From: Phoronis australis
Taxonomy: Eukaryota; Animalia; Phoronida
Assembly (NCBI GenBank): GCA_002633005.1
Contig: NMRA01000566.1
Coordinates: 230,944-273,254, forward strand
Reading direction: 5' to 3'
Length of the DNA: 42,311 bases
Part shown: positions 4,976 to 42,311 of the stretch, piece after piece
Position numbering within the stretch: position 1 is the stretch's first letter
Layout of the letters: each line of letters opens with the position of its first letter
Notes under the pieces: generated by a model
The model's database searches: none
Seen by the model: only the letters and a program-made list of their open reading frames with translations
What the model was told of the DNA's origin: nothing
Made by a program: the position numbers and the translations under genes

Positions 4976-5012
4976 TATAAATAACAATTACTACAATGTC
5001 CGAATTGTTAGT
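4976..5012 (+). promoter_or_regulatory. Candidate core promoter of the EPDR gene (TATA box plus Inr-like TTAGT)
   Basis: TATAAATA at 4976-4983 and TTAGT at 5008-5012. A GTAAGT donor at 5058 and a ttttccag acceptor directly before the ATG at 5110 would define a 52-nt 5'UTR intron. Confidence 0.4.
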
Positions 5013-5109
5013 AACAATTTACGTGTCGAGGCAACACTATGTGCGATACAATCGATTGTAAGTTCATGTAAAGGGTTCCTGAATTTTTAGATCAACCTTG
5101 CTTTTCCAG

Positions 5110-8100
5110 ATGCTCAAGACAATTGCAATTCTTTTGGTGGCAGCCGTGTCGCTCAAGGCTCAAACCTGCAACATTCCTGCAAAGCAATTTAGCGGCGCAC
5201 ACAGCGTGATTTTTAGCCAGGTTACTGATGGCGGTGCCCAGAGCAGCTTGGTGAGTTTCAATTTCTTGATCAGTCCTTTTTAAACCGGATATGAAATATG
5301 ATGCGCATGTCAAGGAATTAGGTGAAGTTCAATGATAACTGTACCAGGCTACACATGCATCTTCACAATATTAGCAACTGCATCCTATTGCCATTATTCA
5401 AGTCACGAAGATCAGCTTTAAAGATGTTCTGCTGAAGAACTAAAAACAATCATATTTCGGATTCTACAATTCTCCATGTTGACCGCTACTATGGTAATGC
5501 AATTTGAATTTTTGAAAACACTTAAGTATGTGAAGTAAAGCAGAACTAGTTATGATTCGATCCCGAGATCTTCTAGTTCGAAGTTTGCCATTACATGGCT
5601 GGGTTGCGTAAAACTATTTAACCTATCCTCTAGATAAATTAAGATTATCCAGAGTGCCTCTGTTCAACCAAAGGCGTTACTAAAGTCGCTGAAATCCAGC
5701 GCAGCCTCTCATTGGCTCATTCCAAATCATGATTATGACATAACTGCACGGAATATCAAAAACAGGGAATGTTCTTAAAATAAACATGTACCTCGTTTTT
5801 TCGTCTGTGAACCAGCAACGTTCTCAAAATAAATTGTTAATTTTATGTGAAAACAGAAATTTTGCAAATAGGTCATCTTTGCTCTTATGATGTTCCTTAC
5901 ATAGGAAGTGCTGTTCTTAGTAACACGTCACTACCGTGATTTGCGACGATCATTTTCTCCATAACACTCATTATTAAAAACATTTAGCAACTTCGATGGC
6001 AGTTGATTAATTCACATCGTCGCAGTATGCTGTATCTTTGAATAAATAATAACATTAAGATATGTTGGCCTAATTAGCCCGCAAATTTATTTATATGATA
6101 AGCAGATGAAGTTGACGTACTTTCTGAGAGTGAACAAAAGAGAACAAAAGAGAACAACAACTTGTTCTTTGGCGTGTACCAAGACCTTAAACCAGGTTTT
6201 ACTTTGACCTGGTCACGCCCAGGTTCAACACTGTGAAAGGTGGCTGACTCAGACTTGCGGGATATACATGTGCACAACCGTGCTGCCGAAAGACGTCGCG
6301 GGAACGAGAGTAATTAATTGTTTTCAATTATACGACTACAAAGATTTCAAAACCTTACTCCGAATGACAAAACAGACAATGACAGACAACATAATCTTGT
6401 TCCCTATGACATCATTTTTTCTGTAATCAGTTTTGCTAGGAAACATTTTTCCTCAGGATAAACGTTTTCCGACCTGCTGCTACTCATTTTATTGATGACA
6501 GAGCAACCAGGAAATGTATATCTGCAATGATTCTACCAACAACTGTTTGTTGTTATTGATACCCACATGATCACAGTTCCGTTGAAGCACTTCAATAGTC
6601 CTTTGTTTGGTTAATCCAGCCCTACACAGTAGGGTGCGTTGGATACATTAAACCTGGTTTTACTGAACTGCTCCCTGGTCTAACAAAACAAGGGTTTCAG
6701 ACTTTTAAACCAGGTTGATGAAATGGAAAATAGGTCTAAAGCTCGACCAGGTTTAGGAAGACCAGGTTTTAGTCTTAAACCTCGTTTTGTTAAACCACCA
6801 ATAATGAAATCGGTTGCTTATGTTTAAGTGAGTTTCAGAGTAGAGGGTCGTTCTCACTTACAGCGATCATAATCTGGAATAAATCTATTTTCTCACGATG
6901 TGTTCATTACTTTCTCATGAGTTGGAGTTATTTCTAAGCCACGCACTTCTTTTCTCGCTTGTATCACAGCAATTTCCCAGAACATCGTTTTTCTAACAAA
7001 CATTGTTCGTGAAAGAGCAAGTCACCCGATGTAGCTTGCTAACAAACGTGAATCAAACACTGTTTTCTACTCTTTCAGATAGATGGCACCATGTCCTTCG
7101 ACATGGATAAGATGCTTCAAGGTGGATCACAAACGTTAAGTATGGGCACTATCTCATTCAAACAGAGGTTTCTTTCTGATTTAAAAAAGGTAAATATAAA
7201 AAAACGTCTTCCTTTGGCATTTCGTATCCTTATCAATTGAAATTGAGCGAATCATGAATCTTTCTGCTAGTGAAAGAACACAATGACTTTTTGGTACGGC
7301 CTGCCATATCAATCGATTTCGTAATCTGCTGCCAGTGTGTTGCCACAATGATCAACTCTAAAGCATACATTAGTAACCAAAAATTACGCTTTAGAAAATC
7401 GAAGTGAAGCCCCATTGTGGTAGTTTCACTCAGTATCTCTTCAGAAGCGTTGTCAGTGAAAATATTTTTTTAAAAATAGTTTCACGCAATTTAGTTTTTA
7501 CTTACTTCAGACATTCAACGAATGATCGCTACATGTATGTTTCAAAGCTTCTCTTGGAAGCCGCTAAGATACTCTTTCCTAATCACTAATTTAGATCACG
7601 TTATGACTTTCGTCAGGCGACAGATGTCGGTAAATCGTACTAACGTTCAGTCCAATTGCGTTTGCCTTATGACGTTACTATTAATTTAAAAAATACATCG
7701 AAGTGGGTGGAGTTTCCACTGAAATCTCGTCACATCCGGCGGCAGTAGAATGAGTAACTATGCACCTGTCAGCTGTCACTCACTAACGTTGCCGTTTTAG
7801 TTGGAGGTGAAGCAATAAACATAGAAATTAAACTGTAAAAATGATATTAATTCAGTTAAGTTTGAACATATTAGGATTTGTGCGAAGAAATGAAATTCGT
7901 GGTGTGTCATTTTTATTAAAATGTATACCGGGCTATGTACCGTTTGCAAAAAGATGTCGGATACCCGAAGGTAATCGATTATACATTTGGCTAGGGTACA
8001 GCTGTAGAATACCACACTACCAATCCATTGTCAAAGAAAAACACTTTTTAGCACACATTTATAATTGCCACCGTTTTGTAGTGATTCTTGGGCAGGTATT

Positions 8101-11100
8101 TTTAACCTGTGAATCTGAAACAATACAGAAATTCCGTGTTTTTAAAGAGGAGCACATCATTCTTTGGTGTGTTTTAAAGTTTCGTTTGATATAATATTTA
8201 AAAACCCATTTGTAGGTTTTTGTAGGTGAGAGAAGAGAGAGGAACGTTTTGTATTGACGATTTTCGAATTCTCAGAGTTAATTTCGTGGGAAAAAATCTT
8301 TACATAGGGAAACTGGACGCGAAAAAGTCACCATATGAGCGGATCGACATCCGGGTAGGCTAAACCTCTCGTAGGGCGATATCCCCCGAAACCGCTATTC
8401 TACTATTTTAATGTGCAAGTGAATGCGTTTTTTATCCTATAGATGTCACTAGTGTTGGCGTTGCGCCCTTATACTGCAATCCATGTATTACGAAAACGAA
8501 GTCTAAGTGCAAGCTCACTGGTCCAGTTGCAAACTGCATACAGTACATGTACATGTACATGTATGGATAGCGCCTCTACCGCTTGAAAGGTGCTCTGTGG
8601 TTTATGTCGGTAGAGTTTGATACCTAGTACCTCGCGAAAAAAGCACAGATAAGGATTGCCGTGTATTTTCAACGAGAGTATGTGATTTTGCCTTTGTCCC
8701 CGCGAACTTTACCCTGTCGTTTGGTCATGTCTGGTCAAACGTACAAAATAATGTCCCAAGAAAGTTTTGTCCTTTGAAATAGTGCTCGGTCTCCCTCACG
8801 ACATCCCAAATATTCCAAAGTACGATACCGATAAAGAAATTTATATGGTAGCCTACACCCGAAGAAGATCCAGTACTTGAAATCATTATGTCTTCTATAA
8901 CGTACAGTTGTATAAGAGTTCTGTGCAGCATTGCATAGCGCAACGCGTCCTATGGAAAACAGCTGAGAAATGTACCAAACTCAATGTTGGTACGCGTTCT
9001 TGGATTGAAGATTTCCCTGTGATGGACAACACGATGAAGCTAGAAAACGTAGTTCGGTCATTTGACAAAAATATGATAACTTGTAACTTTGTCTTTAAGC
9101 CTGTTCCTGCATATCTTTTTAATTGACCACGGTTCTTTTTATTTTCAGCAAATAACCTACACCGTAACCAATGGAACGTGCTACAAAACCCCTCTTCCAG
9201 CGTACGAAAACCCATCCAGTAAGAAGGAGATTGGTCTTATTCTTTTCAAGTTTAGAGTTAACATTTTAGCGTCATATATTTAATCGAGATAACAATTGAT
9301 TTTATCAGTATTGAAAACCACCATTCTCTTGCTGGTCTCATTCTTTTTAACCTGTTTCAGGTCTGAACTATTGCGGTACGTTCATCATGGGTTCTACGGT
9401 GACCGATTGCTTAGCGCTATCAATTCCACCTTCAGAGGCCTACAACGGCACAACGCAGATGCATATGACTCTTGACACCAAAACTTGCATCCCTACGACG
9501 ACAGTAACTACTGGAGACATGTCGATTGGTAAGCCATTAGTTTGGGGAAATTGCATACATGTATCATCGGTTCGGTCCGTCACTGTTCAATTGCCTATTA
9601 GTAGGCTTATTTATGACCTAAGCAACACGTTAACAACTTTTGGCCCTACCACCCCTGATAGTGGACAAATCATTTAGTCTGAAAAATCAAACAATTCATC
9701 GTGAAATTCGTTGTCAAATAAAAAAGATCGAGTACAGTATGAAGTCTATCACCGGAATTTAGAGTGTGCCTGTAGATTTATCACTCCTCAATACCATGCA
9801 TGTCCAGCCAGATACGACTGCATCTTTGCATCCCCTAATCTCCTAATTCGAACTCGTATTTAGACATCTTCTGCTGAGCCAAATACGAACTCAAGAAGTT
9901 TCAGCTATTCTGCTTTCGAGGAAAAATCAGCATGGTTTAAAGAGGCATGGAAAGCGAAAGTTCCTAAAATATGTCTTTTAAAAATTCCTGACGATAATAC
10001 CATCTCGTAACGTCTTGTACAAAGTAATTCGCTTTTCCCTGTGACAAAATTTCCAGAAAAATCACAAAATTCACGAATTTTGAAATACGCGTGAAGGAAA
10101 TACTCTGTGGTTACCACAGAGTTTCTGATCGCACTTACACTTAATAATATGATAAGTGCGCGCATGCGCTCACAGTCAGTTGTTTGAAGTCGCTTAAGGT
10201 TAAATGTCACAACTTTCATATAAAAGAAATGTGCAACGCCAATATCTTGCCATAGCAATTAAGGAAATCTGCTTTGGCTTTTGGGAGAAAAATCGACGAA
10301 GTGGCGAGCAGTTGACAGGTCGTCTTTTGAAATTTGAAACTAAAAGAAAATGCTTTGATATGAACTGAAATTAAAAATATTTACGAAGAAACCTTAAAAA
10401 TACCTAGTGAGTAGGTCGAATTCTGTTTCAGTCGCAGAGAACCGCTTTCAATATTTGGAACATGTATTTAGTCTGTTTATCGCGTTCCAGGCCTCTTTAA
10501 GACTATGATTTACGATCTCAGCATTAAAGTTTAAATCTGAACTCCAGTGAAATCTCAAATTGAACTCCAAATTGTAGCTCGAATTTGGGAACACCGAGCT
10601 CTAACTTGCATGAAACACTCATCTTCAAAAACGCTACTCATATACTTGAGCACAGAATGAGACACGTACATGTACGTATTTAGTACTTAAAATGTAAATT
10701 AAGATTACGTCGGACCTCATCGTCTAGTATATACCCAAGTATCTACAAAAACAAAACTGTAATGGATTTCAAATCAGTAAAGGTAGATATTGTCTGAAAT
10801 TAGAAAGCCAGTAGTATTTGGTGTTTGACTTTATACCAATGTGTCATTAATTGAGTCACATGACCGTGTTCTTTCAGTAAACCTAGCAAGAAAACATAGG
10901 TACATCCATAGCAAAACCACGGTATCAGATCACACGACTAAATTTAGTTTGATACAGTTGTTTAAAATGAAATCTCAAAACCCTCTTTTAGTTTTCTGAA
11001 TTAGAATTTCGTTTTCGTTTGAGTATTCTCATCCAAATCATATTTCAGTTTTATACATGTAGCAATAATACAAAAATGCAACATTAAAGAAATCCTATAA

Positions 11101-11302
11101 ACCCTGATGATATCTGTTGGACATGCTGAGCATCGGTATAGATCAGCTAAAAAGCAACCATTGTTAGATTATCTACAGCCTATCGCTGTTGTATATTTCA
11201 GGCGATAAAACCGCTTACATCATGGCTTCCGTTATGTACCTCAACACCACTCTTGGTATTCCGGACCTAAGCGTGTTGGAGATTCCACCCGAGTGCAAAT
11301 AG
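5110..11302 (+). CDS. Ependymin-related protein (EPDR), secreted, 196 aa; coding exons 5110-5250, 7079-7189, 9149-9218, 9361-9528, 11202-11302
   Basis: All introns are GT-AG with compatible phases (0,0,1,1), giving a 591-nt open frame. Signal peptide MLKTIAILLVAAVSLKA, then QTCNIPAKQFSG, MSFDMDK, FLSDLKKQITYTVTNGTCYKTPL, KTCIP, and the ependymin-type C-terminus YLNTTLGIPDLSVLEIPPECK*. N-glycosylation sequons at N92, N136 and N178. Confidence 0.9.
6170..6800. mobile_element. Probable PIF/Harbinger-type non-autonomous element in EPDR intron 1
   Basis: Clusters of the near-palindromic AAACC(A/T)GGTT motif at both ends (6189-6225 and 6650-6790). The right end reverse-complements to GGTGGTTTAACAAAACGAGGTTTAAG. 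Superfamily is inferred. Confidence 0.4.
9941..10496. mobile_element. Kolobok-type MITE in EPDR intron 4
   Basis: TTAA on both sides (9937-9940, 10497-10500). 17-bp TIRs AGAGGCATGGAAAGCGA versus rc AGAGGCCTGGAACGCGA (15/17), with purine-purine termini. Confidence 0.8.
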
Positions 11303-12432
11303 CCGTAAGTTTTCAGAATCCCGGCAGTTTAATCAAATGTCAAGGCGGTCGTGGACACTGTACTCCAAATTTGACGGTGAATATAAAAGAGCCCCTAACG
11401 TTGTAACTGACATAAAGTTGAATGTTTTTTCTAGTCGGATTCAGACTTCACTAGAGTCACGTTAATGGACTGTGTGCCATAAGACCGGCCTTACGACCTT
11501 TGAAAGAACGGGCCCCAGCTGAATAAGCACTTCGTTGTCCTGGGCTGCGTTTCGAAGGGGCAAAAAAATTTCGAAAACGCAATGGCCTACAAGCGAACTA
11601 CGTGATCACCACATCTTTTCTCATGAGTATGACTACGGCACTACTCCTGTCCATCGAGAAACTCCTGTCGCTCTTTAAGTTTTACTACTCTTTTACCTTC
11701 CAGGAAGTTCCTTTCAGAAGTGTTGTTGTAGTGCATCGCTAATTGATATGAAACGGGCTTATGTCACAGCGCCATCTGTACAACAGACTGGTCCTGTAAA
11801 ACAAGGATGGCGAACAGACAGAACTCCGTGCGAGAGAATCTTTTACTTGAATGTTTTCCTTGTCGTATACATGTAGTTGTAGTGCAACAATGATCCGGAA
11901 AGTATAGCGAATAGCTTTGTTGTTTTATTTGACGTGTTGTCAATGTCAGTAATTTTCCCGAGTCAAAAAACACGAACTCGTGAAGAATGCATCGATTTAT
12001 TCCGACCCAAACCCGTTCTTGTGGTTGCAGCAACCACAAGCCACCGTAGAGGTATTTCTCGTTAGAAACTATTATACTTATATATTCCTCAACATCAGCC
12101 AATCGCAAGATTTGACTTTTGTTCAATAATCGAAATGTCTAGTAAAAGAAACTTCGTTTATGTTTTAATCTACGAAGACTCGCGTTGTACGATATTTTCA
12201 CTATGCATCGGAAAGAGCATTTAACCATGCGCGTCATATGCGTAGTGGTTTGAGCACAAAATTGCCATACAGTTGGTCAATTTGCGAGTAAAATTTCGAG
12301 TACAGAAATAACACCCGGATCCAAATCGAGCGTGTGGCAGCTGATAACATCACTTGAAGAAGCCATCATTCAGTCAAAATGAATGACACCGCTACTTAAC
12401 GACACCCCGACTAATATCTTTTTCCATTGCAG

Positions 12433-13470: not shown

Positions 13471-14438
13471 CACACGTGACTGAAAATAATTTGTCATCAA
13501 AACGAAGGTGCGACAAGCATGCATGTACTTTCTGGGAGTCTTCAAATCCCTTCTTTCGGAAAATACAGTTCTTCAAACGTTACACGCTGCCAGCCCCTGA
13601 CAGAACAACGTCCAGTGATACTTTGTTACATAGTTTGGTAGGTCATTTGCCTCCCCAGCGTCTTCTTCACCGTGACTTTAACTTTCCTTCAGATAAATAC
13701 ATCTCTAGTAAGGCTCAGTTCATTTCGCATTGTTCAGTTTTGTTTGTTTTCGACAATGCATGAACAGTATTCCTCGCACAACAGAATCAGTACAAACTGC
13801 GTAATAAATTTCTGTGAACTGCGGTAAAACGGTAGCTGAATCTCAAAATATATCTACGTTTTAAACAGACTTCTGAATACGTCATGATTTTATTCTGATA
13901 TTGATACCGAACGCGCTGCAGAAACAGGAAATAAAGCAACATAATAGAATTTTAATGAGTGTAACCAAAATATTAAATTAATTCTTTAGGTAAAAATGCG
14001 TGAACAGCTTTTCATCACCAGGTGTTCCGGTCGTTGTAGTCTGTCAAAATTGTCTCGTTCCTGCTGCTTCAAGTTTCTTGCACTGCACTACATGTATGTG
14101 TGCGTACAGGGTGTTTCGAAACTCTGGGACACCCCATTCGCTATCATATCGGCAACTACCTGTATGCACGTCTGTCGTAGACCAAAGGAAACGGAAGTTT
14201 TTAATTGTAAGTTAATATTTAAAGGTTTTATGTTAATACTTAACCCAGAGTCTGAGAAACAGGATGACTGACCGCCAGTTGTGTACTGGATCATCCTATC
14301 ACTGTTACACATACATGTACATTCACAAGGGCAAAAGCATTCATTTAGTCCGAGTTGTGACACAATGTCACCAAGCCGAGAAGAAGAGTCTTTTTGTATT
14401 TAACATATAAGGCCTGGTACGTTTGTCAATTGATCACA
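13471..14438 (+). repeat. Interspersed ~1-kb repeat, copy 1 (copy 2 at 32464-33510)
   Basis: Colinear, diverged similarity from cacacgtgactgaaaataattt through taggtcatttgcctc and ctcgttcctgctgcttcaagtttcttgca to taacatata.ggcctg. Confidence 0.9.
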
Positions 14439-17289: not shown

Positions 17290-20260
17290 CGTTTGTCTAA
17301 CTGTTACTTTACGTTTAGTTGTAAGAGTCTTCTGTAGCTCTACATGTATGTGGATTTTTGTGACGTCATCTCTGGTAGACGCTCTGCGTCTACACTCAGT
17401 CTTCCTTGACAAACTCTTTACATAATTTTTACGAAATTCATGTGGTTGGCATTTTCTTCCATGGATATTAGGAGGCACTAAATATTTTTTTGTGTCGCGG
17501 TTCAGTTTGCCTGCCTCTTCTTCATATAAAGGCACTTGCTGGGTTTGTTGGGTATATCAGTGAAAGATTGTCAGTTGACCCGTGGACTCACTTTTTGCTC
17601 AGCTTTTCTTAAAGGAGAATGCCACCCGATTTAATTAGTCTTATTTACCTCTTCATCGGTCTATATTCACATCGCCTCTTATACGGTCGACCTCACCTTG
17701 CCGAGAGGTGTCGTGTTAACCTGTGAGGAAGGTGAGAAACGACGCAGCGACGTCAGTGGTTCGTCTGCAGAGTGAATTCCGCTATATTGCGGTGCATCGT
17801 TCCCCCTTGTCCGAACTATGAAGCTGCAAAGAAAGCGGGTATGTCGTTTTTTCGACTTCCTCGAGAGCCCGAAATGCCTAGGAAGTGGCTCGCGCTAGTG
17901 AAGAATGAAAGGTACGCGGTTAATAGTAAGTAGGAGACCCTGAAACATCTCCGTGTCTGCGTTGGCATTTTGTCGACAGTGATTTCCCTGACGAATTCCC
18001 GCTTACCGAACGACTATCCATACGTTCCGTTGCCTGTGCATGTTTATGGCGCCTCTCTAGTATTTGTTGATCAGTTTATTCCGGTTCGAATTGATAGCCT
18101 GTGAAACCTAACGTTATGACCCGGGAAGTCTTCGTCGGATGAGTTCTTGACTAACTAAGTCTGGATTGGCGCTGGGCGAGTTGCCATATAGACTCTTATT
18201 ATTCTTCATTCTGTTTCAAAATGAATTGTTCTCATCCTAACCAATGCTTATATCAAACTGAAGCAAACTCTGTCTCATTAGATACAATTTGTAATGATTT
18301 TGCAGTATTCGTGAGTGCAAATGTTGAGAACCCCGCAATGAATAAACTACTGCGTAATTGACAGGGCATCGAGGCTGTGTGAGCGCATGTGTTTGCTGAC
18401 AGAAAGCTGTTGTGAAACAATTACTCGATTTTATATGCTATGGTCACATGTTAGGGGAATTTTTATTTTCAAATACAAATACATAATTAAAATCATTGTT
18501 ATTGTACAACCTTTGCCCGGACAGTATGTGGAAGGGCAATCCGACTTCGCAGCGCCCGACGAGTAAGTAGATTTTCAGTTTCGTGGCTAATTCCCATATA
18601 TAATTACGTGTACATTATTTCTCTGACTCACTTTTACAGTCTTTTATTGACTGGAGGTTTAGTTTCCAGCTCAAGCTCGTTTTTGTTCGTGCCAGTCCCG
18701 GTGGCCGCGACGGGCCTTATCGGGTTCCGAGCCACTGGCCAGGATAAAAAGCGTTTTGTATGTTTATAACTCAGAATATCACAAGTCTAAACAACAGAGT
18801 TCTAGGTTCTCTTGTCTGTATTTCACGGAAGAATACTTCGAAATTATCTCCCAACAGACCCCTAACTCCTGCTACGGACCTTGGTAAATTGGCCTGCCGA
18901 ACTTTGTAGGCTACGGTGTATCCAAATACCAATAAATCCGTTTCAGCGAAATAAAACAACACGTTTTTATAAGAACTCGGAGTATTTTTAAGGGTTTTAC
19001 ATCGAAGTTTGATGATTTATTGGTGTTAAACCAGTAACTCGTGTTGTGAACTGCTGAACATACTGCGTGTGAAACGTATGACGTCATTGGATAATTTCAA
19101 CATCTCCGTCTGCCGTCAGGTGTCAGGTAATGCAACAGAACGTGTCGTTATCTAGTGGAACTACTCGATCTAAATTGATACAAAATAGATTGTTTTGGGG
19201 TGGCATTCTCCTTTAAACCATCACTAATTGCAAACGGGAAGTTGAAATTTAGCAAGAAATTCATGTGCCAAACAGACTATTATGATTTCTGTAATCTGAA
19301 GAGTTTTGGCAGCTTGAATGAACTGTTTCTCAGTTCGTAGAAATCGCATGCAAATGATGGCTTTGTGGAGAAAACTGCTGATTCGGCGTATTTTGTTCGT
19401 TTTTTCGAATAGCAAGATATACTTCCTGTCATCGTGAAATGTTTTAAATTGACTTTGGAATCACTTTCAATATATTCTGTGCAAGATTTTTAGTCTTTGG
19501 CCCATTATACTCTTCAAATTTTCAAGTTTTGTACATCCAAAAACTGTTTGAGCTGACACCAAATCTGCAACAATTGTTGAGTGCCACCTTATTTAAAGTT
19601 CCTCTTAAACACTTACGTCTAGAATGTCTAATGATGTAACAGCTGTTTAGTATGCAATACGACCATGCATCCAGCTATTGGAGCATTGTGTGCTTGTTTC
19701 TAATGGATTGCCCCTTGATAGCGTTCAGACTATTATTCAAAAAGTTAAATTACCTGACTTCAGAAATAAACGATACTCTACGGATCATCTATCCACTCTC
19801 ATTGTTGTAGGCTATCTCGTTCTGTTGCATTAACAGATACAATTTTGGAAGTCCAATAGCAAAACACTCGTCCACGCCGCCTTTCTGGTTTCCACAAAAG
19901 CATACAGTACATGTACCACATCCTCAAGTGTTATAGTAGTCGCAGTGATGTGGTTTCGACAGGGTCAGCCATACATACAGTGTAGTATCTGGCTACTCAA
20001 GTTACGCATTTTGAAGGAACGTTTTAATTGTTTACTTGTTTCAGTGAAACTTATCTGAAATTGGAATTAAATGGTGTCCCAAGCAATGTGTTCTCTTGCC
20101 ATGTTTATCTATTTTTTAACAATGACAGGGTATTTTTCCAAAGGTGTCTCTCAGTAAGGAAATGTAGCCCAGGTCAGATTGAAAATACACGGCAACACGT
20201 GGACGTTCATGTTTTTACTGTTACTGAGTTTGTAGCTCGAATCTTGGGGTCATTAAGTGC
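17290..20260 (-). pseudogene. Heavily decayed MULE/Mutator-like transposase relic, interrupted by the Kolobok element
   Basis: Fragments in the expected order on the minus strand: ATFPY/ERHLWKN (CxxH-like, ~20131-20170), VNATE (NxxES-like, ~19820), SFISEVR, NAIKGQ, and SWIM-like SCQNSSDYRNHN/VCLAH (~19260-19320). WFKKS is restored across the TTAA insertion site. Many frameshifts are required. Confidence 0.35.
17613..19212 (+). mobile_element. Kolobok-type DNA transposon derivative (1.6 kb) carrying a THAP remnant
   Basis: TTAA at 17609-17612 and 19213-19216, with perfect 15-bp TIRs AGGAGAATGCCACCC / GGGTGGCATTCTCCT. THAP remnant at 17784-17990: ILRCIVPPCPNYEAAKKAGMSFFRLPREPEMPRKWLALVKNER...HLRVC/HFVDSDF. 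Confidence 0.9.
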
Positions 20261-26393: not shown

Positions 26394-26474
26394 ATTGGTG
26401 AATGTGCCCCAACTCATCGGGAAGGTAAGGCAACTTGCCTTACCTTCCCGATGAGTTGGGGCACATTCACCAAT
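26394..26474. repeat. Perfect palindrome: 40-bp arms with a 1-nt spacer
   Basis: attggtgaatgtgccccaactcatcgggaaggtaaggcaa, then c (26434), then the exact reverse complement. It extends a further 5 bp (agctg/cagct) past a 2-nt bulge. Confidence 0.97.
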
Positions 26475-26954
26475 CAGCTAATAGACTTTGGTAATACGTT
26501 AGAAGAAAAAAATAATCTAGCTCTGAAAGTGTATTTTCTTCGACTCAATCGCGTGAAATCGGGACCAAAACTGCTATCAGCTGAAAGACATTATTAGTGT
26601 TGTGTGCGACGTGTTAAAACATGAAACCCTTTCATTTTACACGGGTAGTTTAAACTGTTTTAATTTAACGCGCTCCTACAAAACTTACATCCTTATACGA
26701 CTTGAAGCCCTCAAAGTAGTTCAAAAACTGTTCAAGTCTAAAACGTTTTCTGAAACGACGAATTGAAACTTTTTAAATTAGGAAACGAGTTTTCAAGGGC
26801 TTGAAAACTTGACAAAGACCTAACATTTGTAGTGGATCGTGTAGTTACAGTACTATCTCATTTAGCTCCTAGCCATTTAAAGCGATGCAGTTGAGTAGGT
26901 GATAAACAGTAAACTTGTTGCTACTGAGCTGTAAGCTATTTTGTGCATAAAGAT

Positions 26955-29900
26955 TTATTGTTGACCAAGTGGAACACAGACACACTCATGTTCAACCACT
27001 GGCAAAGTTATCCAAGGACAATCCGCATCACGGTCACATCTAACATCGCGTTCGGAAGTCATTCGCCTAGTCACACATCTGCCGTCGAAGGGTTTCCCGT
27101 TCTTGTCTAGCTCACGGCATTTTTCCCTGAAAAGAGTACAATTCAACATATCACGAAAAAAGATTTATATCGCCAAAAGCACCTGTTGGGCTTAGGCGAA
27201 TATTGGGGTAGGAAGCAGAAGGGGAGAGGGTGGGGCGAGATAGCTTCCCGCAATACTCCGTGTGGTATAACGTAACAGTTATTCAATAATTAGTTATTAA
27301 ATCTTTCGTACATGAAATCAAAATTGACCAATTCTTGTGTTGCATGGTTGTTTTGAGAGATGCTTTACTGAAATGTCCGTGAAATGCAACATCCGTAGGT
27401 TATCGAATGAGATCACCCCCAATGTCCACGGTAAAGCTCGGTATGGTATACTGGCGGGCCGTCCGGCAGCGTTATCACATGTGGCGTGTGCACGGACTCT
27501 ATTTATTTTGCATACTAGACTGTTACGTCTTAACTGAAATCAACTGCAGTAAGTTAATTCTTGATTGCTTTGTGTTGCCCAGACAGCCAAAGCTAAATAG
27601 ATGCGCACAGCCTCATAAAGTCTTTGAACATAACATTTTGGTTACTTGGAAGAGATAAAAGTTATCCCAATGTCACATCCTACACCCTTACACAAAGTTG
27701 ACTATTTGTGTTATATTAATCAAAGCTAACCACAGGTCATGGGCAAGGTAACCGCACGCAATAAATCCGAACCTTCATATCAGTGCGTGCGCACAGAAAC
27801 TAGACCTTTCCAAACCCTCTGCTTCAAGAAGCATCCCTGGTTGAACCTCTTGTGTGATGTGAAATGCTGTCTACTGCATTCAGACAAAAAACTGTTAACA
27901 TTAAGCTAGAAATTGATGGAACAATTATTCATTGAGTATGTTTCTCAAAACTGGAAAAAAAAAACAAGTGAACGTTTTCTCGATCATGAAAACGAAGATA
28001 CCAGGTAACGGTAGACAATTTCAAGTTTTGTTGTTCCAGTGCAGCAGTGAACATTTCCACTTAGATGTCTGGAAAAAAAGAAAAGGGATCAAGCAATACA
28101 CAGAGTTATGGTCCTCAAACAGTTGTCAAGTCTAAAATTTTTATTGCCTCAAAGTCTAGACATTCTTGTTCACAAACCAGAAGAAGGTAATGAATTCGAT
28201 TATTGAAGTTTCAGAGTGAATTCTCGCTAAATCTGCTGCGACAGCTGGAGGCAAATAATCAACATTTGACGCCGGATACAATCAATGACAATTTCCAGTA
28301 CGGCAGCTGTTGAGCGTTTACCCATGATAGTTGGTTTGCTATTTTGGCAGATGAAGTGAGAGGTATTTCAATTCTGGAGCAGCTGTCTCCTTGTGTAAGA
28401 CATGTCGTCCGGACGACAACTTGATAGAATTTGAAATTTAGAACTTTCCTCACATTAATCAATGTAACATCAACTCAAGCGGATCTCATTGCAGCAGCTA
28501 CTCAAGACGTTTTGATACGTTACACGCACATGCACATCTTTGATATTTAGAAAAGAATTTCCCAGTTAACAAAATGATCGCTGAAACGCATGATACTGTT
28601 CAAACGCTGGAAGGAATAAATTAACGGTGTGGTGGAAACATCAGACCTTCGTGACCAGATAGAATGTCCGGGTAAGGGCTAGTAAAGTCGTACTAGGAAA
28701 CTAGGAATGCATTATGAAGCAAATAAACAAGACTTGAGCAACACCATTAATATCTAAAAAAGATGGAGGAGTGTTAGCTCAACTGGAATAATTCTCCACA
28801 TATTTTGGCTTGCGACTTCCATATACAGTTTCTAGCTCCACTCCATAGAGTAGATGTCTACTATAGTTTAATGCAAAGACAACTCCGTTCAAGGCGAATA
28901 AGTTCACACAACAGCACTCTCTGAAGTTAAGAAGGGAATGAACGTTCCCTTCCCTTTTCGTCGACGTGTGCGTGAAAGCAAGATATCTCATCAACGAACC
29001 TGTGCTGCCAACGTATGACGTGCAAGCACCAAAGAGGATTGAAGAGGAACAATCTGTACCTCACTGGTTTTCTTCTCTCAGGGAATATTTTCGCCGTGCA
29101 GGTGAACTGTGGGATACTCGACAAGGTAATAGGAGAAATGGATGAGCACTTCGACCAAAAGTCTTTGTACCCCTTAAGCCATTTAAGAACTTCGTGCAAT
29201 AGAGCTCAGTGAAGAGACGACATTGAAATACCTGACGTGACCAGTAACAGTTACAGGTAAGATCTTGACCTGCGAAAGTTAAGTCACCAGCTTTGTTTTC
29301 TTCCTGATCTTAGTGATATGGCAAAATGCAGCCCTGCGTTTGCTAACTTAAGAAGAGTGACTAGTATTCGCAAATTGGTGAGCTTCATGCAAGAGTTGTC
29401 AGCCGCCAGGAAGATGCTAAGTGAAGTTCAGTCTTTGGTAAGACGATACCTAACGATCCCAGTTATCGCAACGACAGCGTAAAGAGGCTTCTCGTCATGC
29501 ATCCGCTTAAATTCAAGTCTGAGGTAGTCCACGACACTGAAAAGACTGACCAACGTGGAGGAAGGAAGCGACAGACTCACTGTGTCTAAGAGATATAGCA
29601 TGTTTCAGCCAACGACATGATTGCTGTGTCATTCTTCATCTTCTCTTGGAGTATTATTCTTAAGTAGGTCCATACATGTATGTCTTTTTTGCTGTGTGAA
29701 ATTTCGGGTAAAGAATTGTAATATGCATACATATGTACGAGCATACATACATGAAGGCATACATAAATACATACTCACATACACACACATACATACATAC
29801 ATTTGCACTGCATACATGTACAGATATACATACATACATGCATGCATACTTATATACATGTACATACATACATGTGCATAGATGTATGTCCTCAACTTTT

Positions 29901-31072
29901 TAAACATCTCCTACTTAACACTTACCTATCTAGATCGCACTTTGAATCCACAAACGGTATTCGCAGTTTGTAGCACATCTTTATCTTTGTTACTTGTTCG
30001 ATTGTTTTTATGCAAGGTTGAAGCTCTTCGTTGTTCTGGCAATCAGCGCCAGAGCAGGTTTGGTTTGTTCCAGGGGAGGCAGTAGTTCCAGGGTTAGAAC
30101 TGCCACCACCTGGCTCTGAACAGTCGCAAGTATGGCTACAGTTGCAAGTGCAAGTATGAACAACTTTGTCAGTGTTATGATCTGATTCCCGTTTCTCAAC
30201 ATCGGTAACTGCCCCGGGCTTTGAGACGACTATTTTCATGAGGGTGACGTATGTCAGCAGCGTAACCTAGGTGAAAATATAGTGACACTGAGGCCAGAAA
30301 ACATCGAAGTATTTCGTCTACTCATTGAGTTGTGACAATATTTCTCAGAATCTTGGTAACACTCCACGACCGGCGCTGAATCCCGACATTTATCTTATTG
30401 TCACATAAGCGTTGAATCCTCTCGAGGGAAATACGGCCATGCAATAATGTTTTCTGTATTCACCTCCCGCACTGCTTCAACAGTGACCTCTGACATTGAA
30501 GGTTCAAAAGGTACATGTAGGTCAATGTCGACTCGACGTCGTTAGCCGGTTAGATCATCAAACTTTCGGAAAATAGCTTTAAGTAATACAATTGTAGCAG
30601 TGTAAATATCAATCAACATGCAACCAGGTCTCAGTCGTAACATCTGGAACAGGACTGTTAATTATACGACAGTTCTGTCTCAGTTTTCAATCGCTAAGAC
30701 ATATCGTCTGCAACTCAGGCACCAATTCTTCGCCAATATCAAACACTGTTGTCACTGGCCATGACGGCACCCGATACTATCGGCGACAGTATTACACGAG
30801 CAGTATCGACGACCGTCCCAGCAACACGTGATCCTATCCATGCTACAGAATCCGTAGCCAGCCAGCTAGCTGTATCAACAGACTGTCGTGTATTTAATAT
30901 ACAGCTTTGTACCAAGGCTGCAGAATCCGTAGAAATGCGACAACGTACCTGCAACAACGCTACATCAGACATATTCGCCGGAGCTGTATGTCCAAAAAAG
31001 TGAATTAGTGAAATATGCTGTTTTTAAGATACATTTGAAAAAAGAAGCCACTCACTCACAGTTTGTTATCAT
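26955..31072 (-). CDS. Secreted cysteine-rich cystine-knot-like precursor, 186 aa (178 aa from the second Met); coding exons 31072-31060, 30983-30949, 30266-29926, 27126-26955
   Basis: Canonical donors (GTGAGT, GTACGT, GTAAGT) and acceptors (catacag, ttttcacctag, ctcttttcag) with phases 1,0,2 give a 561-nt open frame: MITNSPANMSDVALLQVTLLTYVTLMKIVVS-KPGAVTDVEKR-ESDHNTDKVVHTCTCNCSHTCDCSEPGGGSSNPGTTASPGTNQTCSGADCQNNEELQPCIKTIEQVTKIKMCYKLRIPFVDSKCDLDREKCRELDKNGKPFDGRCVTRRMTSERDVRCDRDADCPWITLPVVEHECVCVPLGQQ*. It has a signal peptide, a dibasic site, 16 Cys and a terminal CxC. Confidence 0.8.
27740..29600 (+). pseudogene. Decayed hAT transposase (TTF zinc finger / DUF4371 / hAT dimerisation; ZMYM1-like type) in intron 3 of the cystine-knot gene
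   Basis: RPFQTLCFKKHPWL, QNWKK..ERFLDHE, WFAILADEVRGISILEQLSPCVRHV (28332-28406), VTR*NVRVRA, EPVLP, ILDKVIGEMDEHFDQ and YLTIPVIATTA*RGFSSCIRLNSSLR*STTLKRL (29447-29550). Many stops and frameshifts. Confidence 0.9.
29722..29890. repeat. Degenerate (TACA)n/(CATA)n simple repeat
   Basis: Tract of catacatacat/tacatgta variants. Confidence 0.9.
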
Positions 31073-31183
31073 ATTGTGAATACGAACTCGTCCGGGTATT
31101 CGTTTGACGTTCGTAAGCAGACGAACGCTGGAAACTTCAACGCCAGATGTCGCAGGACCGCGCAGAAGAGGAAATAAGATCGT

Positions 31184-31231
31184 TCACGACTTTAGGGCAC
31201 TCACGACTTTAGGACCTCTGACGGTATATAT
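31184..31231 (-). promoter_or_regulatory. Candidate core promoter of the cystine-knot gene
   Basis: TATATA at 31230-31225 on the minus strand, about 155 nt upstream of the first ATG. A duplicated 13-mer tcacgactttagg (31184-31196, 31201-31213) lies at the expected start site. Confidence 0.4.
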
Positions 31232-32029
31232 CCAAAACCGTGCCGTGTCTATCCAATATCGTTCAAATTGAACTGATCTCTGTTTACTTTGTACGTGCAG
31301 GAAGCTAGTTTATTTCGTCTCCATATGAACCTAAGCCTTTAATTCGAATTTGGGTGCATGATCCGTGTGAGAAACACAATTACAGTGTATAGCTAAATAG
31401 ATCGTAATATTATGATTTGCCATTGGAGCTAAGACTTGAATTTCTATCGTCCATAGCATTAGCCGGTGGTTGACATGTGTAGAGTATTACACGAAAAAAG
31501 GCGAAACGAAACGAGACATAATGAGGCTTATTCAGCAGAATACTCCTTCGAGGGAAATAGGTTTACACATGTATGCCCACACAAGTATTACACATGCCCA
31601 TTTAACATTTGTTTGAGTTGGTATATTTTGTTTCATAGAAATGCTTTGGAACACAACACTGGCGATTCTAGCTTCCTAAAATTTCTTCCACACGTCGGAA
31701 CAACACGCGCTCTTAAATTTTACATAGTGCATTAATTCACGAATGCTCGTTGCAATAATGAAGAGGAGGAAGATAGAATCGTCCGAAGTTAATGGTTGTC
31801 TTGAATGGCATTTGAATTATTACAATTTAAGTTTGTTTATAGGCCACAGCATAGCTTGATCCGTAAGACGACAAAACAAAATTAAAATGCACAGATTACT
31901 CCAGCGGAGATATTTTTTTACGTGAGCAAGAGACCGTGAAAATGTGTTCAGGGCGCACAGTAATATATTTATTTTTTTGCATCACCGCTGAACTATGGAA
32001 CAGGCCTAGTGTCACTTTGTGAAGAGTCA

Positions 32030-32410
32030 TTTCTGACACGTGACCTTGCTCGCACCCAGCCTAAATAATGGGGGCTCAAATTTTTGAAAGTGCGAATCTT
32101 TTACTAAAAACGATGTCCGTTCACAACTAAGAACTGTGCATTCGCCGAATTTAGGTAGTTCGTGCCTTTTTAGTGTACTTTTGTCCCGTTTTCTACTTTT
32201 TAGTTTTTGTTTTTCTGAAGTGGACCTTTTGCCCACTTTGCCGAATAGAGTTCCGAAGATTTGTTCTTTGACGAGCGCGAACACGTGTTCGACAAATGGC
32301 CGGCTGTGTTACTGCAGCGTTAGCGTGTGAGCAATGACGTGTCACCATGCTCGCACCCAGGGAGATTTCGGGGGCTCGAATGTGCTCCCCCCCCCATAAT
32401 AGCGCCAGTG
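32030..32410. mobile_element. hAT-like MITE remnant with an internal duplication
   Basis: The end reads gctcccccccccataatagcgccagtg (rc CACTGGCG...). The motif tgctcgcacccag...gggggctc occurs twice (~32046 and ~32348). Confidence 0.4.
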
Positions 32411-32463
32411 GCGGGCTCACATAATTATCTGGCTGCCGCCACTTAATTGAACGCCAGTAAAGG

Positions 32464-33510
32464 CACACGTGACTGAAAATAATTTTCTCATCAATAGGTA
32501 CATTAAATACGACAAGCATGCATGCATGTTCTTTCCGGCAGTCTCCAAACCCCTTCTTTCGGAAAATGCAGTTCTTGATGTACATGTGTATTACATTCTG
32601 CCTGCCTCTGACAGAACAACGTACAGTGTGATCTTATTACATAATTTACTAGGTCATTTGCCTCGCCAGCGACTTCTTTACTGTGATTTTAACTTTCCTA
32701 TAGATAGCTATATTTTAACAAGGCTCTGTTCATTTCACATTGCTCCGTTTTGTTTGTTTTCGACAAAGCATGTACAGTAGGCCTAGCACAACAAAAAATT
32801 ACTACAACCTACTGTACGGTAATAAGTTACTGTGAACTGCGGTAAAACGGTTATGGAAACAAACAATACATTTACATGTACGTTTAAAAGAGACTTCTGA
32901 ATATGGTATGGTATTATTCTTATACTGATACTGTTTGCAAAATTGTGTTGCAAAAACAGGAAACAAAGCATCAGTTTTGAATGGAACTCATAATAAAATT
33001 TTAATGAGTGTAACAAAAGTATGGCATAGAAATTCGTGAACAACTTACTGAAAATATGAACTTCATCGCCAGGTGTTCTGATCGTTGTAGTCCGTCAAAA
33101 TTGACTCGTTCCTGCTGCTTCAAGTTTCTTGCATTGCACTATTATATATGCATGCGTATGCATACAGGGTGTTTCAAAACTGTGGGACACCAATGGCTTC
33201 CCTATACAGTGTAGGCAACTATGCACGTCTGTTGTAGACAAAATGAATCGTGTCACTGAGTTTTTAATTGTAAGTTAACATTTCAAAAGTTTTCTGTTAA
33301 TGCTTAATGGAAGAGATACAAAGCCCTCTGAGAAACAAAATAACTGACGGTCAGTTGTCACTGTTACACATTCCCAGGGACAAAAGCACTGATTTAGACT
33401 GCATTGTGACAGACAGTCACCAAGGCCATAGGAAGACTGTCTTTGTGTTTTTAACATATACGGCCTGAGCACGTTCAAAACAATTTACGGCAATTAGAGA
33501 GGCTATCCTT
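32464..33510 (+). repeat. Interspersed ~1-kb repeat, copy 2 (copy 1 at 13471-14438)
   Basis: Colinear with copy 1 over its length and in the same orientation. Confidence 0.9.
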
Positions 33511-35275: not shown

Positions 35276-36170
35276 CTAGGGAAGAGGAAAAAGCAGACAC
35301 GCGAATGTAGTTTTTAGTGCGTCAGATTCCCAGCGCCCCATGCGCTGGATCACCGGTTCAGGGACGCCACAGCTGGCCGCTGATGTGGCGGCGCCAATGC
35401 GAAAGCTATGCGACGTATAAGACTTCGAGGTGTCGCGTCCTACAAAGGAAACCACCTTAGTTACCATGGAGTTGAAACAGGAAAGTGTAACCGGTGATCC
35501 ACTGAGGTGTTGGAACAGGGGCCTGGAGAGGGCTGAAAAGTGGAAAAGTACAAGGTTAGGGCAGCTACCGGGCAATGGGGAGATCGACTGGATGGAATCG
35601 TAAGTGACACTGGTCCAGAGCTGTTCTTGAAAGTACGCATACTGATGACTACAGAATCGCCAGAGAGGGGGGGAAGACGACGTCGCTGACCTGTATGACG
35701 TGGGAGGAGAGCGAGGGGGTGATTGTGAATTCACCGACTGTGAGGAAGGCTAGGAGGAACATGGCACGTGCGAGAATCGAGTCGGCAAAAGAGCAGATTG
35801 CAGAAGGACAGGCTCCAAACAAGCAGTGAAGCAAAGTTTAAGTAATGGGCATGCCTGTGTCAGAACAGGAGCGCATATTGGAAGCACCTTTGAGGATTTT
35901 TTTGATGAAAAAGGAGGAAGTGGGGCCAGGGAGTTTGTCAAGCTTGTGGACAAAACTAATGGCAGAGACATAGGACTGGATAAACGAGCTACTAAGGCCA
36001 GATTCAAAAAGATGGGAGATGTAGTGGGCTAGGATAGAGGTATTAATGGGAGGAGAGTTGTTAGAGGAGAGGTGAAACTGTGCAAGGTTATGCAAGATGC
36101 TGGTGTAGGACTGAAGAGTGGAGGGGGGCAGGGAAGCCCGGAGCAGTCTGGTCACGCTGCGAGGAGGTGT
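35276..36170 (-). pseudogene. Tyrosine recombinase (YR) ORF remnant of the Ngaro/DIRS element
   Basis: N-terminal LLRASLPPSTLQSY...IQSYVSAISFVHKL...FFIKKILKGA, then AMFLLAF..VGEFT, and the catalytic box YTSHSFRIGAATSAASCGVPEPVIQRMGRWESDA. Frameshifted. Confidence 0.92.
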
Positions 36171-37126
36171 NNNNNNNNNNNNNNNNNNNNNNNNNNNNNN
36201 NNNNNNNNNNNNNNNNNNNNNNNNNNNNNNNNNNNNNNNNNNNNNNNNNNNNNNNNNNNNNNNNNNNNNNNNNNNNNNNNNNNNNNNNNNNNNNNNNNNN
36301 NNNNNNNNNNNNNNNNNNNNNNNNNNNNNNNNNNNNNNNNNNNNNNNNNNNNNNNNNNNNNNNNNNNNNNNNNNNNNNNNNNNNNNNNNNNNNNNNNNNN
36401 NNNNNNNNNNNNNNNNNNNNNNNNNNNNNNNNNNNNNNNNNNNNNNNNNNNNNNNNNNNNNNNNNNNNNNNNNNNNNNNNNNNNNNNNNNNNNNNNNNNN
36501 NNNNNNNNNNNNNNNNNNNNNNNNNNNNNNNNNNNNNNNNNNNNNNNNNNNNNNNNNNNNNNNNNNNNNNNNNNNNNNNNNNNNNNNNNNNNNNNNNNNN
36601 NNNNNNNNNNNNNNNNNNNNNNNNNNNNNNNNNNNNNNNNNNNNNNNNNNNNNNNNNNNNNNNNNNNNNNNNNNNNNNNNNNNNNNNNNNNNNNNNNNNN
36701 NNNNNNNNNNNNNNNNNNNNNNNNNNNNNNNNNNNNNNNNNNNNNNNNNNNNNNNNNNNNNNNNNNNNNNNNNNNNNNNNNNNNNNNNNNNNNNNNNNNN
36801 NNNNNNNNNNNNNNNNNNNNNNNNNNNNNNNNNNNNNNNNNNNNNNNNNNNNNNNNNNNNNNNNNNNNNNNNNNNNNNNNNNNNNNNNNNNNNNNNNNNN
36901 NNNNNNNNNNNNNNNNNNNNNNNNNNNNNNNNNNNNNNNNNNNNNNNNNNNNNNNNNNNNNNNNNNNNNNNNNNNNNNNNNNNNNNNNNNNNNNNNNNNN
37001 NNNNNNNNNNNNNNNNNNNNNNNNNNNNNNNNNNNNNNNNNNNNNNNNNNNNNNNNNNNNNNNNNNNNNNNNNNNNNNNNNNNNNNNNNNNNNNNNNNNN
37101 NNNNNNNNNNNNNNNNNNNNNNNNNN
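36171..37126. other. Assembly gap (956 N)
   Basis: Run of N. Confidence 1.
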
Positions 37127-38009
37127 CTGTTGAATAGTTTTTGTAATGCTAAATGTTGTAAAGTATTGTGCATTTTAATTTACTTATTATGTTAAAAGTT
37201 TGAATCATTTTGGCTTAATGAATAAAAAATGATAACATCTTGTATTGGACTTGTCATACTTATGTGCTCGAACGAGCCCCCTTTTTGGAGAACTGGCAAA
37301 AGGTCTGCCTCAGTCACAGAAGCACGAATTATGAAAAAAGTAGAAAATGAGACAATATTCCACTAGAAGACAGGAAGTACCAAAATTTAGAGTCTGCAAT
37401 TCATAGCTCTGAACATACCCGTTGAATCTTGTAGTAAAAGATAGACATTCCCAAAAATTCCAGCCCCCCCCCCCATTCTTTTAGGCTTGGTGCGCTCATA
37501 CAAAGTCTGGGAACAACTTTGCACAGTTCGCCAGAAGTACCCAAGTTCTAAATAAACCTCGTTTGAGCGAGCGCTTTGGCCAGCGACCAGTTAGGCCTAA
37601 GGGTAGCCTTGGCGCAAAGCTGTGTAGGCCTACTAACAAGCTGTATTTTGACGATAGTCTTCACTGGTAGCTGGTGACTGAGGCTAACTAAGGTCTGCCG
37701 CGGCAGTGTGACACAGGACTAACCAGCCTGTAATTTCATGCAAGTGTCTGAAACTACCCTTGAATATATGCAGCACTTATGATTTGACCATTTTACTTCG
37801 ACAAAACAGCTTGCAACCGCATGCATTTACCGTTCGCCACTGTCTGGTCTCGATCCGCACCTGGTCCGATAGGCTGCCGTCCCGAGTCTGGCAAAGTAAT
37901 TTCTGTCAAAAATTTTTCGCCACATTTCTTCAGCAAATTCGATAAAATTGTCCGTAGTTTGATTTTATTAAAATTAAGGCGCGCTGACGATTATTTTATC
38001 CCCGTTTGC

Positions 38010-39300
38010 TGGCTGGTGATATGACTGGCTTTGCAGGTGCTCGGGCCACGGGCAGGCAAACCAGGAAGCCCCCAATGTTGCAGCAAAGCCCCCATTGGAG
38101 CCTGCAGCATCAGAGAACAGTTTGATGGTGTCTGAAGATGTCCACTCTTCGAATAGGAACAGTGTTTTCTATTTGAAGTCTCGAAGCAATTTGGACCCAG
38201 TCCTAAGGTCCGCTCTAGCTTCTTTATTGAGAGTGGCGAAGTGCCCTGGTCTCGAACTAACAATGGTGAGGTTGATGAGGGGACTCAGGAAGGCGTGGCC
38301 GGGCACGATGACGGAGCTGGCGAAGTTTAGTAGACCAATGAGGGATTGAAGATCGCGGAGCGTAACCTTGCGGCGCTTCTGGAAGTCGAGGAGGAGGTTG
38401 GAAGCTTTGTCCACCTTGTCCTTTGGGAGAGAAGCAGTCATGGTGGTAGAGTCGAGGTGGATGCCATAAATGGGGATGGAGGTGGTCGGCTGAATTTTCT
38501 TGTCGTGGTTGATAGGGATTCCTAGGGAGTCGCAGAGTGATATGAATGCGGCAAGGTCCCGGGAGGCGAGGATGGGAGCCCACGAAAAAGAAGTCATCGA
38601 GGTAGTGCGAAACGCCGGCGACCTTCAGCTTGGTTTCCAGGATCCATTGAATCACAGAACTGACCTTCTCGAAGATGTTGCAGCTGGAGGCACAGCCAAA
38701 TGGCAGGAACCAGTCTTAGTAGAAGTTGTTGGCCCAGGAGAGACCTGAGAGGTGGTAGTCGTCAAGCTGCTCCGGTACGATGCGAAAAGCGTCCTTGATG
38801 TCAGTCTTAGCCATGAGGGAGGGCGTCCAAACCGTTGAATCAGGCGGATAGCGTCCGTGGTGGATTGGTAATGGACTTGGGAGAAATACGGGGGTATGAG
38901 GGAGTTAACGAAGTTAGAGTAACGAGATGGATATGACAAGTTATGAATGAGACGAAAACCGTTAGGATGAGATTTAGGGATGAGGGCAAGGGGTGACGAA
39001 GAGAAAAGGCGAAAAGGAGGGGATGGGAAAGGACCAGCATAGCGACCCAGCAGAACTTCAGTCTGTATTTTCTGAAAAGTAAAGTAACTTCGGGATTACG
39101 GAGAGCTGATGGGTGGTTGGTGGGGGGATTGGAGTGACAGATCGGGGAGGCGCCGAGCCTGAAACCAAAAGAGAAACCATTGATAAGCTCCGTAGCCGAG
39201 AGGGAGTCATACCATAACCTGAAAGGAGAGGTTTAGTTTTGTTTACTTTTACGGGTGTTGGGATACCTGGCAGGTGTGTTGGCGGTTTTGGAGGTGGATA
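38010..39300 (-). pseudogene. Reverse transcriptase and N-terminal RNase H remnant of the Ngaro/DIRS element
   Basis: PTPVKV, LINGFSFGFRLG, YAGPFPSPPF..SPLALIPK..GFRLIHNLSYP, MAKTDIKDAFRIVP, LPFGCASSCNIFEK, VSHYLDDFFFVG, LRDLQSLIGLLNFASSVIVPG, and RNase H LFSDAAGSNGGFAATLGASWFACPWP. Confidence 0.93.
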
Positions 39301-39439
39301 AACGCTCTGGGTGGTTGGCGCCGCAGAAGCGATTATTATCAAGTGTCTATTTTGTGAAGATTGGCCACCCTTTGGTTTAGCTGGTTGTGGCTCACACATG
39401 TCTGTAGGATTTCTCGTGCTAGTGGCTCTGGTCAATACG

Positions 39440-41834: not shown

Positions 41835-42311
41835 ATGCCACCCAAAAAACAATCTAATTTGCATCAATAACGACACGTACGGTTGCGTTACCTGACACCT
41901 GACGGCAGACGGAGGTGTTGAAAGTATCCAATGGCGTCATCGGTTTCACACGCAGTCTGTTCAGCAGTTCACGACACGGGTTACTGGTGTCAGCTTATCG
42001 CTTGAAGTCATCGTTTAACACCAATAAATCATCAAACTTCGATGTAAAACCCTTAAAAATACACCGAGTTCTTATAAAAACGTGTTGTTTTATTTCGCTC
42101 TTACGGATTTATTGGTATTTGGAAACACCGTAGCCTACAAAGTTCCGCAAGCCAATAAGGTCCGTAGCCAGGGTTTGGGGTCTGTTCGGGGATAATTTCG
42201 AAGTATTTTCCGTGAGATACAGACAGGAGAACCTAGATCTGTGTTGTTTAGACTAATGATTTTTTGAGTTCTATACACAAAACGCTTGTTATCCTGGCTA
42301 GTGGCTCGGAG
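41835..42311 (-). mobile_element. Second, inverted copy of the Kolobok element at 17613-19212 (right-end portion, runs off the window)
   Basis: Reverse complement of ~18725-19206. It starts atgccacccaaaaaacaatcta (TIR lacking the terminal AGGAGA), continues ttacctgacacctgacggcagacggag, and ends gtggctcgga. Confidence 0.92.

Follow-up and report, generated by a model that had tools for sequence, protein, structure and literature searches.

A spliced, multi-copy gene of Phoronis australis encodes a predicted secreted cysteine-rich protein with candidate growth-factor-type cystine-knot spacing

A minus-strand gene for a cysteine-rich, predicted secretory precursor lies in a 42,311-nucleotide stretch of the Phoronis australis assembly (contig NMRA01000566.1; the whole of this stretch is referred to as the window), which is animal-like DNA with a GC content near 40%, long introns, repeats and an assembly gap. 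The locus is a real, expressed and spliced animal gene of three exons, all features of which are given here in window coordinates and lie on the minus strand. Exon 1 (33049..33120, 5' end approximate), defined by read joints, holds the 5' untranslated region (UTR) and 18 coding nucleotides (33049-33066, MKFIFS) and ends at the donor GTAAGT. A TATA-like box, TATATAA (33142..33148), is a putative promoter element situated about 28-30 nucleotides (nt) upstream of the furthest read-supported 5' end. Intron 1 (30267..33048; 2782 nt, phase 0, GT-AG), which contains dispersed repeats, is followed by exon 2 (29926..30266; 341 nt), encoding the rest of the signal peptide, the propeptide, a five-Cys module, a linker and the first half of a Cys-rich domain. 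Intron 2 (27127..29925; 2799 nt, phase 2, GT-AG) separates this exon from exon 3, the coding part of which (26955..27126; 172 nt) supplies the second half of the eleven-Cys domain and the stop codon. The stop codon lies inside an AATAAA (26954..26959), as an initial annotation made from the sequence had noticed, and this hexamer is a candidate poly(A) signal.

The exon structure is supported by four sequencing runs under one species label (X1-X4), aligned to the window in two rounds; X2-X4 were read to about one fifth of the run and X1 consists of contigs. No run is on record as RNA, X1 being RNA by guess, and the RNA evidence rests on the aligned reads, for which 4 joints were listed in the first round and 11 in the second. 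Exons 1 and 2 are joined at 30266/33049 by 6, 127 and 4 reads in X2, X3 and X4 (137 reads in three of the four runs; the reference reads CT..AC), all on the strand expected for minus-strand RNA, and in the first round 121 X3 reads exit exon 2 at 30266 into sequence matching 33049-33078. These joint reads come mostly from a paralog, with 103 X3 reads diverging in the 5' UTR past 33085. One X4 read, whose shorter arm at the joint is 74 nt long, fits this copy, and because it reaches that far beyond the joint we place the 5' end of exon 1 near 33120. The joint between exons 2 and 3 (29926/27126), already proposed in the initial annotation, is present in one 519-nt X1 contig (depth 99.7, 7 differences) and in 3 X4 reads, and the same 2799-nt skip occurs in a diverged copy in 2, 79 and 5 reads (X2, X3 and X4, respectively). 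The exon 3 bins and most exon 2 bins have zero reads on the opposite strand. Related contigs extend 3' to 26562-26814, and an ATTAAA is located at 26659-26664; some 480 nt past the stop codon lies a perfect inverted repeat of 40 bp with a spacer of 1 nt (26394-26474). The corrected first exon makes the gene clonable.

The initial annotation had described an intact spliced prepro gene of four exons. The gene, its splicing and its open frame stand, but the exon count is three. Its four segments do join in frame, with GT-AG ends, into an open frame of 186 codons, and translation of the joined segments gives 16 Cys where they had been placed. Two proposed micro-exons (31060-31072 and 30949-30983, within 30949..31072 on the minus strand), however, lie within a dispersed repeat in intron 1 and have no joints and coverage on both strands; reads over 30364-31283 are about equal on the two strands and range from 82 to 95% identity, which is the behaviour of a dispersed repeat. 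The junctions that these micro-exons require, 31060/30983 and 30949/30266, are used by none of the 4 and none of the 11 listed joints, no loose end supports them, and every listed exit from 30266 leads to 33049, for which reasons the four-exon model was rejected. By placing the first exon at 33049 the reads give a different start, and the N-terminus first proposed is wrong. Within 1.2 kb upstream of exon 2, relaxed consensus sites allow 3 in-frame ATG paths; therefore, an in-frame fusion of this kind easily arises by chance. Even granting that the four-exon path is open with canonical sites, that few reads come from this exact copy and that very short exons are hard to detect as joints, we consider it very improbable that this form is a real minor isoform of the locus. 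The KR-ending propeptide and the 144-residue, 16-Cys mature chain are the same in both models, since the mature chain is independent of the first exon. The dispersed repeats of intron 1, at 30364-31283 and 32048-32274, have strong read coverage on both strands.

The corrected precursor has 176 amino acids (aa), numbered here as in the earlier model minus 10. By hydropathy, the hydrophobic stretch at its N-terminus begins at residue 1; the earlier model opens with polar residues, and the corrected start appears more signal-like, with a signal peptide predicted at aa 1-21 and cleavage after residue 21. The sequence and its hydropathy suggest an 11-aa propeptide ending in KR (aa 22-32; 30189..30221). 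The 144-aa mature chain is acidic (16.0 kDa, isoelectric point (pI) 5.35), contains 16 Cys and sequons at 48 and 74, and consists, in order, of a module with five Cys, a Ser/Thr/Pro/Gly linker and a domain with eleven Cys. The N-terminal module, C-x-C-x-C-x3-C-x-C (aa 45-55; 30120..30152), has its Cys at 45, 47, 49, 53 and 55, includes the N-glycosylation sequon at 48 and found no match in Pfam. The linker occupies the 21 residues of aa 56-76 (30057..30119), and the domain, split by intron 2, spans aa 77-170 (26976..30056), with Cys at 77, 82, 91, 104, 116, 123, 137, 150, 156, 168 and 170.

This gene belongs to a multi-copy, fast-diverging, expressed family. In X1, contigs that cover the exons at 82% identity have depths of 2700-9600 each, compared with 99.7 for the near-identical contig, which makes the paralog contigs about 30-95 times deeper than that of this copy. 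Among the best 40 of 453 differences from the window, 16 positions could be assigned to abundant paralogs; they fall in 13 codons, 8 with a changed residue and 5 silent, none losing a Cys, although these codons may pool several paralogs and the paralog evidence consists of partial reads. Manual reading of five loose ends showed one that differs from the window directly after KR, one with extra linker units, in agreement with go-back joints at 30067-30093, and three in which C91, C116 and C150 persist with only about 4/10 to 6/10 of the neighbouring residues unchanged. Go-back joints and loose ends from all four runs indicate that the number of PGTT-like units in the linker varies between paralogs. 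Across the paralog reads, the pre-pro region aligns with at least 90% identity, KR and the Cys that are seen are kept, and the residues between Cys and the length of the linker change.

No second copy of exons 2-3 was found within the window. Exon 1 with its flanks has a 72% identical 1-kb copy (13471-14423 versus 32464-33475) that retains the 5' UTR and ATG and has lost the TATA box and splice donor. Over 32793-33047, 15 and 8 stranded reads (X2 and X3) join exon-1 to intron-1-like sequence through 11 letters also present in this copy near 14 kb; they are probably transcripts of another locus sharing the same first exon.

More likely than not, the eleven-Cys domain is a growth-factor-type cystine knot. 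A spacing search for six Cys ending in C-x-C returned C91, C116, C123, C137, C168 and C170, the same set that the initial annotation had chosen, an agreement in spacing only; loop 1 of this candidate knot has 24 residues, the ring x6, loop 2 has 13 and loop 3 has 30. The pattern is weak alone, as 169 of 4000 shuffles of the domain pass. Two further Cys, C104 and C150, each lie 12 residues after a knot Cys (C91 and C137), and the following knot Cys come after 11 and 17 more; the eight-Cys pattern that includes them appeared in 16/4000 shuffles of the C-terminal 100 aa. Strand periodicity extends over aa 100-116 and 137-170, and the exon-3 model, a single-sequence model of half the domain, is all beta, with a predicted local distance difference test (pLDDT) score of 66; fold searches with this half model gave no clear match (best E 5.8, best Z 2.4). 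Because the offsets of C104 and C150 match the extra finger Cys of gremlin, DAN and GPB5, DAN/hormone-like fingers with a C104-C150 bond present themselves as an alternative to the extra disulfide proposed earlier. The spacing fits this finger-to-finger bridge (C114-C160 in the earlier numbering) as well as or better than C150-C156 (formerly C160-C166), making it a good alternative; the initial annotation had considered C104 (then C114) as a possible inter-chain Cys.

In its defining features the protein corresponds to no named knot family. It resembles DAN, gremlin and cerberus, as well as GPA2, GPB5 and the glycoprotein hormones (GPH), in having a loop 1 of 24, a loop 3 of 30 and a terminal C-x-C. 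For comparison, gremlin is spaced C-13-C-9-C...C-13-C-17-C-1-C and GPB5 13-9/14-15, and loop 1 of GPH-beta is 24 (PMC3224965, supplement 1). In gremlin, DAN and GPB5, additional Cys in loop 1 (Cys I) and loop 3 (Cys III) are bridged to each other (PMC3224965). C104 and C150 match the extra Cys I (loop 1) and Cys III (loop 3) of the DAN and GPH types, at 12 residues here versus 13-16 in the table of that study, and a bond between them is predicted. Unlike in the eight-membered-ring knots (DAN, GPH, bursicon and TGF-beta), C116 and C123 are separated by six residues, none of them Gly, which gives an 11-residue ring and not C-x-G-x-C. It further departs from the DAN/hormone type in its shorter loop 2, the extra C77, C82 and C156, the N-terminal five-Cys module, the short KR propeptide and the lack of a sequence match.

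An enlarged ring without Gly is shared with noggin, noggin-like proteins, Trunk and prothoracicotropic hormone (PTTH). In noggin, a Cys pair in the second finger is followed by Trp, a feature in which the present protein can be likened to it. Ring sizes are 8 (TGF, VEGF, hCG), 10 (noggin) and 14 (NGF) (PMC3592873), and noggin has a spacing of 22/5/7/35 (PMC9034678). Compared with these values for human noggin, the protein has 24/6/13/30, a ring of 11 versus 10, and an extra loop-1 Cys. Single-exon scans of Pfam returned no match to noggin-type or IL-17 families.

The arrangement of signal, propeptide and C-terminal knot is like that of Spaetzle and the neurotrophins, and CII-CIII-CIV are spaced x6 and x13, reminiscent of Drosophila Spaetzle, with a loop 1 far shorter here than in Spaetzle or neurotrophins. 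The propeptide, of only 11 aa, also sets it apart from both. There is no adjacent Cys pair, and hence no seventh Cys beside CV for a dimer bond as in Spaetzle, although that Cys is not universal among Spaetzle paralogs. The neurotrophin motif (PMC2772990) is absent by inspection, and the NGF ring of 14 compares with 11 here. Outside the growth factors, mussel CRP-I precursors are characterized by a conserved signal and propeptide, a dibasic site, a diverse mature region and many copies (PMC10138031). The partial paralog reads give the same picture of conserved signal and propeptide, dibasic site and variable mature region, whereas the C-C-CC-C-C knottin array of CRP-I is replaced here by an acidic two-module mature chain of 144 aa.

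This is an orphan family, for which no homolog was detected in searches of protein, structure, family, atlas and contig collections. Every database search for homologs was run with single exons and, because intron 2 splits the Cys-rich domain, the sensitivity of these searches was low. None of the candidates scored, either for exon 2 against proteins of 62-198 aa (0/1) or for exon 3 against longer proteins (0/2); the best E-values against PDB sequences were 0.49 and 0.38; in a protein atlas, exon 3 reached 0.86 at best with low recognition and exon 2 returned nothing; and 0 of 18 viral contigs matched. The sole match of exon 3 to 1.84 billion representatives, a 1898-aa bacterial-type PKD-repeat protein in which 20 residues matched nine times, was rejected. 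Pfam returned only Nodulin_late (E 0.01-0.03, below cut-off), and the 4 of 327 metagenome contig stretches that matched 11-22 residues were taken as chance. A description of this family is absent from the literature searched, most subscription journals being outside its coverage.

We would give an even chance to the proposal that the gene encodes a lineage-specific, multi-copy secreted protein that carries variable binding surfaces on a growth-factor-type knot. The precursor would enter the secretory pathway, lose its signal after residue 21 and be cut at KR by a proprotein convertase, releasing a 16-kDa acidic glycoprotein. Within the knot, C91-C137 would thread the ring of C116-C168 and C123-C170, probably with the finger-to-finger bridge C104-C150, and the finger surfaces that vary between paralogs would serve as binding surfaces. 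Since both Cys counts are odd (5 and 11), chains may be joined into dimers or oligomers by a spare Cys and the N-terminal module, via the flexible linker; an odd count is, however, no proof of a covalent dimer, as gremlins dimerise without one (PMC7473711). Most likely, the product would be a bulk-secreted gland, mucus or immune binding protein rather than a conserved low-dose morphogen, because the paralogs are abundant and a constant pre-pro region stands beside a variable mature region, as in CRP-I.

Several observations weigh against this proposal. When the whole mature chain is shuffled, the six-Cys pattern passes in 816/4000 cases and the eight-Cys pattern in 172/4000, and the shuffle tests used ranges set with the sequence already in view. 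The model of exon 2 has low confidence (pLDDT 53) and places a helix over approximately aa 86-106, where the knot needs a strand; over aa 91-103 the helical moment exceeds the strand moment, and the models cover half-domains. Neither a CxGxC nor any family motif is found in the protein. As to abundance, contig depth is a poor measure of expression, X1 is RNA by guess, and coverage in X2-X4 is modest, up to about 140 in one fifth of a run; the differences considered are the best 40 of 453. Both the binding role and any target are putative. The predicted helix and the frequency of the six-Cys pattern in shuffles would suit a secreted disulfide-rich protein of another, mixed helix/strand fold with coincidental knot-like spacing, perhaps a toxin- or antimicrobial-like precursor of the CRP-I kind, with which the conserved pre-pro part, the dibasic site and the diversity of the mature region also agree, or perhaps a cross-linker of mucus, tube or egg coat. 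We regard such a protein as rather unlikely, given the rarity of the eight-Cys pattern in domain shuffles, the strand periodicity, the all-beta exon-3 model, the absence of an adjacent CC of the CRP-I kind and the acidity of the mature chain.

A different possibility keeps the knot and changes the role: a strongly diverged member of the knot superfamily (DAN-, noggin-like- or IL-17-like) would serve the animal itself, at low dose, as a signalling ligand or BMP trap, with the duplication as a local expansion. The finger lengths and extra Cys that match the DAN and GPH types would fit such a ligand, as would the prepro layout, and the IL-17s likewise share little sequence and vary in their disulfides (PMC11087794); a local expansion of IL-17 has been reported in marine invertebrates. 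Against this stand the missing CxGxC, noggin spacing and neurotrophin motif, and neither paralog contigs as deep as those in X1 nor a changing mature region next to an unchanging pre-pro region is typical of a conserved morphogen. We therefore think a low-dose ligand unlikely and favour the variable, bulk-secreted binding protein.

Other features of the window lie apart from this gene. A decayed retroelement, possibly of the DIRS/Ngaro type, surrounds the assembly gap at 35279-39400 (weak matches to tyrosine recombinase, E 6.6e-4, and reverse-transcriptase thumb, E 2.5e-4, both below cut-off). On the plus strand, a probable ependymin-related gene (7080-11305) has candidate exons near 7080-7140, 9149-9233, 9361-9527 and 11203-11305; the last has a weak match to the Pfam Ependymin C-terminus (E 0.011, below cut-off), and for the candidate exon 9363-9527 none of 9 homolog candidates scored. 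Ependymin-related genes are reported as not found in ecdysozoans (PMC6280359), a weak hint of a non-arthropod host. A 430-bp repeat is present in two inverted copies (18726-19151 and 41867-42310) that are 84.5% identical. The sequence TACATGTA occurs 33 times in the window versus about one expected occurrence, and an excess of it is typical of several marine invertebrate genomes.

Growth-factor knots are mostly known as conserved developmental, endocrine or immune ligands. At the least, the locus represents a family of expressed genes not recovered from the protein collections searched. It is tempting to speculate, doubtful as so full a proposal is, that the family is an undescribed branch of the growth-factor cystine-knot superfamily in which DAN/hormone-type bridged fingers are combined with a ring of 11 residues and a five-Cys coupling module at the N-terminus, and that its radiation in a single animal lineage gave rise to abundant exocrine effectors (for defence, as pheromones or toxin-like) evolving like conotoxin or CRP-I precursors. 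If true, the combination of ring and bridge would be a new disulfide-stabilised scaffold, and the growth-factor fold would have been reused as a variable binding platform by way of a multi-copy, fast-diverging and abundant family.

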